Virus record (IMG/VR): IMGVR_UViG_2627853701_000001
DNA: 22,394 nt
Source of the DNA: a virus
Lineage: Duplodnaviria > Heunggongvirae > Uroviricota > Caudoviricetes
Reading direction: 5' to 3' (one strand)
Of this stretch, positions 3,001 through 6,000 are shown in pieces; the stretch's first letter is position 1, and the number at the start of each line of letters is the position of its first letter. Position numbers: made by a program.

Positions 3001-6000
3001 GGTCTATAGATGAAAAACTAACCTGGAATGCTTTGTGCGATAGGTTAGTCAGGGTTATTGGGAAAAGACCATCAAGACAATCCTTAAGTAGTCATGTAAG
3101 GATTGCGGAAAGCTTCAATGTGAAAAAAACCACAATCAAATCTGGTGTAATACACACTGTAAAACCTGCTAATTTAAAAGTGGCTTCTCAACGAATTAAA
3201 AGACTTGAAGCAGAAAATGAAGCTTTGAAGGCATTAAATGAACGCTATTTAGAGCAGTTCAAAGTATGGCTTTATAATGCTCACCTTAAACAAATAACGA
3301 TTGAAGAACTTAATAATCCGTTACCTGCAAAATACCTTTAATAAAATTGATAGGTTTTAGCTATTGACATGGTGAAATATTATGTTATTTATTTTCTTGT
3401 CAGGACGACAAAATTTCACTATTGCAAGGATGCATATTATGGACAAAACAAATATTAACTTAATGGAAAGGTATCTTCTTCTGCTTGATCGATTCGTTGA
3501 TAAACTCGCTGAATCAGGTTTCTCAGAGCAACGAATTATCGAACAATCATATCTTTTTTGTGCAGGATTTTATATCAAATACCAGAGTGGTATAGAAAAA
3601 ATGACCTTCTCCAACAGGGAGGTTGTTTTAACCTTTCTGCTACTTTCATATTATAGTCATATAAATAAACTGGATGATGATTTGATCAACAAAGAGCGTA
3701 TGAAGCATGTATGTTCTTCATTGATTAACTTTATAGTCAGTAATGGTAGCCGAACAGAGAAAGTCTATGCTAATGAGAAAAGGAAATATGAGGCTTCAAC
3801 TCTAAAAAGAGAATTATCGAAAAAGGATAAAAGGAAAAGATATAGGTTGTAGTGTTTGTATGATTTTCATTAGACTTACTTAATCTATAGTCTAAATTTT
3901 AATATTAGATTCGTAAATCTATAATTCCATGAATCTAATTAATGCTTAAAAGCATCCTCTAAGATGCTTTTACTGTTACCATGCATACATACCCAGAACC
4001 TTTAACAAACGATAATAGAGGGGAGTTGTGTATAACAACTCCCTGACCTTACTAAGGTTAGCGATGTTATTCAGCATCATTCTGTCAAAGATTTAATTTC
4101 TTTGAAAAATACTAATTCTACCCCTTAAGTTAATAACTTCTGCTTGATCGTGTATTTTGGTAAGTTGGAGTACAATTTTTTGATTGGATCGTCAATAAGA
4201 AAAAGCTAGAATCCTTAGAAGGACATAGATTTTCATAGGGTTAAGATATGACGATTGCGAAGGATAGTTCGACTGATGAAATCATTCATGGAAATGATCT
4301 CCGTGGAATGGATGATTTTTACATTAAGACAACGAGTTTTGAATGCCCATACGAGCCTTGTAAAATTAAAGCCACACCTTGTAGTTTTACTATGAAACAT
4401 GTTAATCAATCATATTTCAGATATGGCGATAAACATAAGGATGGATGTGGTATTCATGATCCAAGATATAAAAACAATCATACTTCAAATGACGAAAGAA
4501 AACATAATTCGCCACCTGCTCCGGTTATATCACTTTTAAAAATTGATGTGAAACCAAGAGGTGGTGTTAAAAATGCCAGAAATATTAAAAATGAAAATCA
4601 CAAGGATGAAAAAAAAGGTAATGAACATCCTGTATCTTCATCAAGTATTAAGCCAGTCGTTGACTATTACATAAATAATAGCAATCATAATGAACAGCTA
4701 TCAATCCCTCCATATGGCACGCGATCTTATAAAGATACATTTCAACTTATTTTTTACAAAAACAACATACGTTATTACAAACCTGCTATTTATTATGGTG
4801 TAGCCCAGTCTAATATTCGTCTGCATGAAGATTCAGATAAACATTGTATTACTTTCCTCGCAAGGGATAAGAAAACCCAAAAACCATTTACGCTTGAAAT
4901 TGATGTTTCTGACTGGAATAAAAGTCAGAAGGATGTGTTTTGGAAGGAATATGAAAAGCAAAGGAAGGAAGCTGATAGGTATTATAAGGGGCTTAAAGAT
5001 AAAAGGAATGCTAAAAAATACTTGACGGTTTTCTTTTTTGGGATGCCGGATGAAAATGATAAGTTTCTATTTAAGACAAACCACTTTAAATTAGTATATG
5101 TGGCTTTCTTGGGTAAATTTGAAAGCTCATATAATGATAGTAATTATTACATTGAAAATGATCTGTCTGTATCATCATTGAATGAACAACCCATTTCATT
5201 ATCTGATATAGACCATAAAAATCATGAATATAATATTGAAACTTCATTAGATTTTAGTTCTCCTTTGCCAGAGCCAGAGCCAGAGCCAGAGCCAGAGCCA
5301 GAGCCAGAGCCAGAGCCAGAGCCAGAGCCAGAGCCAGAGCCAGAGCCAGAGCCAGAGCCAGAGCCAGAGCCAGAGCCAGAGCCAGAGCCAGAGCCAGAGC
5401 CAGAGCCAGAGCCAGAGCCAGAGCCAGAGCCAGAGCCAGAGCCAGAGCCAGAGCCAGAGCCAGAGCCAGAGCCAGAGCCAGAGCCAGAGCCAGAGCCAGA
5501 GCCAGAGCCAATAAGATCCTCTTTAAAGGAAAATACTGAGACTGTAGAAATGAACAGTAAAGTTTGGGGGAGGCTGAAAAAGATAATCACTTTCTTTAAA
5601 AAGTGATTTATGTTTCTGTAAAAAGCCCGTAGGTATCAACTGCGGGCTAAATTTTCCCTTGATGCTGGTTTTGTCTTTTATCTAAAAAATGCCAGTCTTC
5701 ACGTTGCTTGTTCCAGCATTAAAGATGTATGTGCTGACTTTTTCGCCTTTGAAAGAAACTGTCAGAGATTTAGTTTGTGAGTCTGCGCCACCTGCAAGCA
5801 GTCCCACAACGGGGATGAAAGAGGTTGCTTTGGACTGGCTGTTATACATAGTGTATGACCATTGTTCTTCACCATCGATCAAAGAACGGCTGTCAGGTTC
5901 ACCGAACGATGCTAACACGTCCTGTTTTGTAGTTTTGCCTTTAACAATTTTGGTTTTCACACTTTCCTGCGTCTCATTTTTCAATGACTGGTTGCCTACT

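Follow-up and report, generated by a model that had tools for sequence, protein, structure and literature searches.

Identity, variation and gene context of an in-frame (GCCAGA)n array, the TR2 / Vhec1 / O157-10 typing locus of Escherichia coli O157:H7

Forty perfect copies of a hexanucleotide within an open reading frame (ORF) raise the question of whether such an array varies in length and, if it does, what the variation does to the encoded protein. The array in question, (GCCAGA)n, lies in a 22,394-nucleotide stretch of DNA recorded as viral (Caudoviricetes; IMG/VR record IMGVR_UViG_2627853701_000001), which was analysed as a whole and is referred to here as the window. A previous reading of the window, made from the sequence alone, had described the array as an uninterrupted repeat that should be hypervariable and should change the length of a protein without breaking its frame. 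We followed up this sequence-only reading and identified the array as an already-known, hypervariable variable-number tandem repeat (VNTR) that serves as a marker in multiple-locus VNTR analysis (MLVA) of E. coli O157:H7 under the names TR2, Vhec1 and O157-10. What is added here is the protein and element context of the array and the parallel VNTRs in sister genes; the locus itself is already known and heavily studied.

The array and its identity as a typing locus

Analysis of the 22.4-kb window by Tandem Repeats Finder indicated an array with a period of 6, 40.7 copies, 100% matches, 0% indels, a score of 488 and the consensus GCCAGA, and a regular-expression check, with which direct inspection of the sequence agreed, resolved it into exactly 40 unbroken GCCAGA units at 5267-5506 followed by GCCA, just as the sequence-only reading had it. 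A flawless periodic tract of 244 bp cannot be produced by chance. Apart from it, the window contained a single array of appreciable size, (TATTTC)9.8 at 6852-6910. In the plus-strand ORF, the repeat is read as TTG CCA GAG CCA GAG and gives L(PE)40P at residues 340-421, with (PE)40 at residues 341-420. Because the unit consists of two codons (CCA GAG), every allele of the array is in frame, and solely the number of Pro-Glu dipeptides changes. The minus-strand ORFs across the array, (GS)n of 122 aa and (AL)n of 85 aa, were rejected as genes, being by-products of the repeat without homologues.

The possibility that this is one of the named MLVA loci, which the sequence-only reading had raised together with the mapping of published primers onto the flanks, was turned into an identification by exact primer mapping. 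The TR2 primers GGAAGGAAGCTGATAGGT and CGCAGTTGATACCTACGG (PMC2246123 Table 2) bracket the array without a mismatch (Table 1), each having a single site in the window, where 0 are expected by chance, and the predicted amplicon is 682 bp. The repeat unit also agrees, as GCCAGA is GAGCCA when rotated, and the reverse complement of the latter, TGGCTC, is the published unit of TR2 (PMC2246123 Table 2). TR2, Vhec1 and O157-10 are one locus according to a synonymy table (PMC3768571 Table 1), on which the equivalence of the three names rests, the primers mapped here being the TR2 pair; an equation of TR2 with O157-37 was rejected because the same table lists O157-37 as a separate locus. The array thus shares with TR2 / Vhec1 / O157-10 the primers, the 6-bp unit, the organism, the extreme polymorphism and the mutation rate, with no difference at the DNA level. 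The three names reportedly originate from Noller et al. 2003 (TR2), Lindstedt et al. 2003 (Vhec1) and Keys et al. 2005 (O157-10).

A BLAST search with the 1,453-bp stretch around the array found it in 313 of 5,426 complete E. coli genomes, in all cases on the chromosome and mostly in O157:H7. Positions 1-10,949 of the window are identical to strain EC4115, with 40 units in the first array and 9 in the second, and the two sequences are not byte-identical further on, where they are distinguished by a hairpin duplication of 38 bp near 10,980 and, downstream, by a few substitutions. This duplication, of a GC-rich hairpin (AAAAAATGCCCCTCTCCGGAGGGGCATTTTTT), is present in EC4115 (23,703-23,788 of the extracted locus, L028) and absent from the window at about 10,950-11,000, and the gene spacing in the annotation of strain 86-24 suggests that this strain is also without it.

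The second array proved to be a named locus as well, namely TR1 (= Vhec4 = O157-9), the published primers of which match exactly at 6703-6722 (+) and 6983-7002 (-), so that the window contains two named MLVA loci. The copy number of TR1 was 7, 9, 11 or 13 among the genomes inspected. Both TR1 and TR2 are perfect 6-bp arrays used in the same MLVA schemes, whereas TR1 differs in having shorter alleles and no RefSeq gene over it, as it lies where nothing is annotated, with the IS30 remnant on one side and an HNH endonuclease gene on the other, and its mutation rate is about ten times below that of TR2 (PMC3777172). An 82-aa '(LF)n' ORF running through the TR1 array is probably spurious.

Copy-number variation among genomes and in culture

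The lengths of TR2 alleles were compared among 55 O157-type complete genomes, which were picked at even steps along the BLAST ranking. They carried 27 alleles of 8-52 units with a median of 21 units and a Nei diversity (D) of 0.95, and strain F6667 carries 53 units, by which the range among complete genomes becomes 8-53 units. The predicted hypervariability, for which a comparison of copy numbers across isolates had been proposed as the check, is thereby well supported. The window's own allele belongs to the upper tail of the distribution, since at least 40 units were present in 4 of the 55 sampled genomes. The lengths of 54 of the 55 alleles were an exact multiple of 6 bp away from that of the window, and the intact RefSeq coding sequences across alleles ranged from 388 to 478 aa, in line with the earlier claim that the frame is kept whatever the length. 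The sole allele out of register belongs to strain 122, in which a 1-bp frameshift precedes the array and the gene is a pseudogene by annotation. All of the extracted arrays were perfect, both those of O157 with 8, 19, 29, 52 and 53 units and those of non-O157 E. coli with 14, 17, 26 and 29 units.

Differences were also seen between genomes that otherwise agree around the locus. PNUSAE147324 has 29 units and PNUSAE145743 has 32 units, with identical flanks of 9,019 bp on the left and 8,194 bp on the right, and the 32-unit span of the latter is common to ten sibling genomes. For strain 86-24, 29 units were found in all three assemblies. The two assemblies of Xuzhou21, NC_017906.1 and NZ_CP173109.1, conflict, with 25 and 32 units (spans of 1,363 and 1,405 bp), respectively, which may reflect a divergence of laboratory stocks, or an assembly error or repeat collapse in the older assembly.

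The rates at which such changes arise in culture are available from published work, our mutation data being drawn from PMC3777172. In the parallel serial passage of nine strains, O157-10 took 41 of the 57 mutations, with a rate of 1.3-4.8e-4 per generation per strain, the highest among the O157 VNTRs, and the changes comprised 23 insertions and 18 deletions, in which multi-unit steps were frequent (PMC3777172). O157-10 alone had alleles of more than 22 units, and rates were greater above about 13 units (PMC3777172). By this published relation between length and rate, the 40-unit allele of the window should rank among the least stable ones. Deletions of the whole VNTR also arose in passage (PMC3777172), and null alleles have been reported. 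Furthermore, TR2 had a diversity index of 92.2%, the highest of the loci, in a study of Irish cattle (PMC2246123), and Vhec1 differed by 1-7 units between related Californian isolates.

The protein, its probable linker and its mobile element

The array lies in a 452-aa ORF (Table 1), referred to here as the VNTR gene, homologues of which were found in Xenorhabdus, Providencia, Serratia, Pectobacterium, Yersinia, Klebsiella, Citrobacter, Enterobacter, Pantoea, Erwinia and Moritella, with the identity of the products reaching down to 33%; a profile search gathered 215 cluster representatives of the protein family. The ratio of nonsynonymous to synonymous substitution rates (dN/dS) of the N-terminal domain (N-domain) was 0.10-0.20 versus close relatives, and this ratio, together with the homologues, indicates that the VNTR gene is real and under purifying selection. 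The conserved N-domain, of about 300 residues, contains the invariant residues C33, C38, C45, H63 and C67. It matched no family in Pfam, NCBIfam and PHROGs, and a profile search of PDB sequences gave nothing meaningful (best E = 0.2). A promoter and terminator scan of positions 3800-6100 gave sites no more numerous than in shuffled sequence, and a hairpin at about 5623-5650, which contains the site of the TR2 reverse primer, was not flagged by it.

Table 1. Coordinates of the features around the TR2 array in the window (pLDDT, predicted local distance difference test)
Feature	Position	Strand	Remarks
(GCCAGA)40.7 perfect tandem array, VNTR TR2 / Vhec1 / O157-10	5267..5510	+	Encodes (PE)40; Tandem Repeats Finder, regular expression
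452-aa ORF, 'hypothetical protein'	4248..5606	+	WP_071817984.1 in EC4115; homologues, dN/dS
Linker, non-repetitive acidic part, aa 306-340	5163..5266	+	Poorly conserved in alignment; pLDDT <50
C-terminal tail and stop codon	5511..5606	+	AlphaFold2 helix aa 436-450 (nt 5553-5597)
TR2 primer GGAAGGAAGCTGATAGGT site	4963..4980	+	0 mismatches; primer from PMC2246123 Table 2
TR2 primer CGCAGTTGATACCTACGG site	5627..5644	-	0 mismatches; primer from PMC2246123 Table 2
Upstream conserved module: tyrosine recombinase, 543-aa 'DNA-binding protein', 132-aa and 156-aa hypotheticals	1..3852	+	About 31% G+C
Tyrosine recombinase gene	1..1314	+	
543-aa 'DNA-binding protein' gene	1311..2942	+	
BamE-domain / SEN1984-family lipoprotein gene	5682..5984	-	Convergent; final gene of the element that is intact, ahead of the IS30 remnant

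In the AlphaFold2 model of the full-length protein, aa 303-435, including the PE tract, are without secondary structure, and aa 436-450 are helical. The tail helix predicted for the window protein has a hydrophobic moment of 0.66, compared with 0.35 for a control, and a net charge of +5, and the character of the tail is preserved across the family: the last 20 residues of 54 full-length relatives have a median net charge of about +4 to +5 and a median maximal hydrophobic moment of 0.72, compared with 0.43 for control windows. By layout, the protein comprises a domain of about 300 aa, in which a Cys/His cluster is combined with an OB-like fold, then a linker predicted to be disordered, and finally a cationic amphipathic helix at the C-terminus. 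FtsA and MinD have C-terminal amphipathic membrane-targeting helices on flexible linkers, and the VNTR protein, with its globular domain, flexible linker and short cationic amphipathic C-terminal helix, may be likened to them by layout, not by sequence homology. In the 54 relatives, the low-complexity linkers span 34-233 residues with unrelated sequences, indicating that the length of the linker is weakly constrained, and the linkers of the O157 alleles, of about 68-158 residues, are within this range. The PE tract is therefore likely to be a length-tolerant linker, in agreement with the earlier designation of it as a linker, which gains support from the unstructured state predicted for it between the folded N-domain and the terminal helix.

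The PE tract shares alternating Pro/Glu dipeptides with the (EP)n(KP)m segment of TonB and with the EP procyclin of trypanosomes, in which such tracts are extended, fairly rigid spacers. Its scores were below the thresholds for both (Pfam Trypan_PARP, 47.1 vs 100 bits; NCBIfam TonB NF008084, 20.9 vs 315 bits), and these matches are compositional only and confined to the tract. The window protein differs from TonB and procyclin in having no TonB C-terminal domain, signal peptide or glycosylphosphatidylinositol (GPI) signal, and its tract is far longer and hypervariable.

Repeats were also found at the same position in relatives. Enterobacter and Pantoea carry (PE)5 and (PE)10, the (PE)10 of Pantoea sp. 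GD03673 having a single interruption (GPEP); Erwinia sp. S63 carries (PE)8 that is built from a different codon (unit GCCTGA); and Yersinia and Pantoea ananatis have LPEPEP only. In Pantoea dispersa S68 (7020-7181 of locus L005), the array of the orthologue is (QE)21+5 with the unit GCAAGA instead of GCCAGA, one base change being shared by all units, which is what would be expected from concerted evolution by turnover. Among the 5,426 complete E. coli genomes, 253 have a paralogue of 61% identity, CFT073 being one of them, and this paralogue contains a perfect 9-bp array, TTGCTGAGG, encoding (AEV)n, of which 5, 7, 15, 22, 24 and 26 copies were counted in six genomes (CFT073, 88_1577, W13-16, EcPF7, CUVET18-565 and MS21199; L018-L023); a locus of E. 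albertii (L006) was grouped with this observation. The (AEV)n array occupies the same linker position and is followed by a conserved, similar tail, ...IWTGIRKLISFFKK, and the gene carrying it in CFT073 is directly upstream of Qat anti-phage genes. In a survey of 166 family proteins, each standing for a cluster at 50% or 90% identity and many being truncated, no perfect peptide repeats were found beyond the (PE)n and (AEV)n cases, and therefore repeats are not a general property of the family.

Database entries of the family are often 'partial', stopping at or just before the repeat (clusters P0001, P0004-P0006, P0008-P0011 and P0016); P0001, the 90% cluster of a 340-aa truncated product, has 1,019 members, and P0010 has 907. 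Such entries are consistent with the breaking of short-read contigs at these VNTRs.

With respect to the genes around the array, the element has the order HTH (helix-turn-helix) gene, tyrosine recombinase (401 aa), tyrosine recombinase (437 aa), 543-aa, 132-aa and 156-aa genes, VNTR gene and convergent BamE-like lipoprotein gene, of which the HTH gene and the first recombinase sit just beyond the edge of the window. Enterobacter, Pantoea and Xenorhabdus have the recombinase module with 87-100% aa identity, the BamE-like lipoprotein being 100% identical in the Enterobacter and Pantoea loci. At the lower level of 28-52%, the module recurs in Erwinia and Pantoea brenneri (28-45%) and in Pantoea ananatis and Enterobacter cloacae, the order in the last two being judged only by gene sizes and Pfam domains (comparison loci: L001 10067-16605, L002-L004, L007, L009, L024 and L025). 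In intact copies of the module, a relaxase and variable cargo come next. By this synteny, the VNTR gene belongs to the conserved genes of an integrative mobilizable element of the tyrosine-recombinase type. The element resembles recombinase-trio elements, but the recomb_GmtY scores of the two recombinases, 20.9 and 22.3 bits, are far under the cut-off of 340 for the recombinase of gamma-mobile-trio (GMT) elements. Recombinase-in-trio (RIT) elements consist of three consecutive tyrosine recombinase genes; here the Phage_integrase domain is present in two genes, and searches of Pfam, NCBIfam, PHROGs and PADLOC detected no domain in the third, which encodes 543 aa.

The N-domain also led to a comparison with an anti-phage system. 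Residues 151-284 match PADLOC PD-Lambda-4_B (PDLC03992) partially (profile 161-294 of 303; E = 1.1e-7, 29.5 bits), and 66 of 69 family representatives match the same profile, with a best E of 4.7e-189. This match points to a homologous domain, by which orthology is not established. PD-lambda-4 is now named Avs8, and Avs8B has no known homology, is of unknown function and is dispensable for defence (bioRxiv 10.1101/2025.07.02.662641). The Avs8 operon includes Avs8A (Mrr nuclease and STAND NTPase), an arrangement that differs from that of the window gene, as no Avs8A STAND NTPase is annotated beside the VNTR gene or in the 35-kb locus, where its neighbours are two small hypotheticals upstream and the convergent lipoprotein gene downstream, and the flanking ORFs have no PADLOC match except a weak one to AbiEi. 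The family gene keeps synteny with the two-recombinase module and shows none with a STAND NTPase, which suggests that 'Avs8B' could belong to the core of the carrier element and adjoin its cargo, rather than being a defence component.

In O157, the IS30 remnant truncates the element, which adjoins a decayed lambdoid prophage with espW and espM2, next to ssrA. Elsewhere the window is a mosaic, consisting of a truncated IS30 transposase gene at 6035-6775 (-) and other parts at 7105-9539 (+), 14098-16556, 17756-20316 and 21335-21697 (-). It contains lambdoid remnants (HNH endonuclease, NinG, phosphatase, antiterminator and holin), copies of IS66 and IS1203, and the type III effector genes espW, espM2 and NleG-like DUF1076 genes, followed by ssrA (transfer-messenger RNA, tag ANDENYALAA) and smpB.

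Origin and meaning of the length variation

We are highly confident that the variation of the TR2 locus arises by slippage, with an in-frame change of PE length in a tolerant disordered linker. When the perfect 6-bp array is replicated, slipped-strand mispairing would bring the nascent strand out of alignment with its template, by which whole units would be added or removed, often several together. The rate would climb with the length of the array, steady turnover would keep the array free of interruptions, and the outcome would be that PE dipeptides are gained or lost in frame within a disordered linker of weakly constrained length. We infer slippage as the cause from the whole-unit steps and from established knowledge of microsatellites. 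The sequence-only reading had taken the perfection of the array to imply recent or ongoing expansion, which needs a qualification: with 23 insertions versus 18 deletions in passage, the process is turnover in both directions and not expansion alone.

Two alternatives are hardly credible. Simple repeats are linked in general with phase variation, and slippage in perfect short-unit intragenic repeats with a high mutation rate is likewise found in the contingency loci of Haemophilus, Neisseria and Campylobacter; those loci, however, use units of 1, 2, 4, 5 or 7 bp or promoter repeats, which result in on/off switching, whereas the two-codon unit of the window alters protein length only. With 54 of the 55 alleles in register and the lone frameshift located outside the array, on/off phase variation by frame-shifting slippage is extremely improbable, as the sequence-only reading had also held. 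It is just as difficult to believe that the array or its variation is an artefact of repeat misassembly. Short-read assemblies do break at the array, as the cluster of 340-aa 'partial' products illustrates, and the two Xuzhou21 assemblies disagree by 7 units, but the length polymorphism had been established by sizing with polymerase chain reaction (PCR) and by sequencing well before there were genome assemblies, the alleles form a smooth series in exact 6-bp steps across many independent complete genomes, and the three 86-24 assemblies concur.

A less remote alternative, although still an unlikely one, is that the ORF is unexpressed in O157:H7 as the remnant of a decayed island, the array being merely a neutral DNA microsatellite and the linker meaning nothing biologically for this host; this is partly compatible with slippage in a tolerant linker as the best explanation. 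It would fit the truncation of the element by the IS30 remnant and its fusion to a degraded prophage, the G+C content of about 31%, which is typical of silenced foreign DNA (silencing may apply here), the frameshifted copy in strain 122, and the whole-VNTR deletions (PMC3777172) and null alleles. Nevertheless, the ORF is annotated as intact in all of the approximately 100 listed matches (of the 313) but strain 122, and this intactness persists though the tract gives the remainder of the gene no protection from frameshifts. The purifying selection on the N-domain and the intact upstream module also speak against a dead remnant, although both could predate the acquisition by O157. More doubtful is an adaptive tuning of length, in which a mutable tether would be selected, for example, for the reach of a membrane-anchored DNA-binding domain or for interaction with a partner or a phage product. 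Distinct perfect in-frame repeats are found at the same position in relatives (P. dispersa, Erwinia and the (AEV)5-26 paralogue), the helix that follows the repeat at the C-terminus shows strict conservation, and PD-lambda-4 B (Avs8B), to which the family has a match, travels with anti-phage cargo. To a similarly low degree of likelihood, the linker could be a recurrent hot spot, at which separate lineages independently build perfect, hypermutable in-frame repeats, namely (PE)n in O157 and other E. coli, (QE)n in Pantoea and (AEV)n in strains of extraintestinal pathogenic E. coli (ExPEC), CFT073 among them. On the other hand, the short LPEPEP of Yersinia and Pantoea ananatis is ancestral, so that expansion needs a proto-repeat only and no selection; the linkers of the wider family are non-repetitive and of nearly any length; length variation has no known phenotype; Avs8B is dispensable for defence (bioRxiv 10.1101/2025.07.02.662641); and insertions and deletions were about equal in passage without selection (PMC3777172). 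Taken together, the length variation is most likely tolerated, that is, near neutral, rather than adaptive or a regulated switch.

TR2 has been in practical typing use for more than 20 years as the most discriminating and least stable MLVA marker of O157:H7. It separates very close isolates and yet muddles outbreak definitions, and the PulseNet protocol left out O157-10 because it was too variable within outbreaks (PMC3777172). The breaking of short-read assemblies at the array also calls for caution in the interpretation of draft genomes. The (AEV)n array of ExPEC could serve as a typing marker. Should repeats recur in this linker owing to selection for evolvability in the length of a tether, one that connects a DNA-binding domain with a helix binding a membrane or a partner, the TR2 marker would not be a neutral microsatellite but would have a function in a mobile element, as a means of tuning length.

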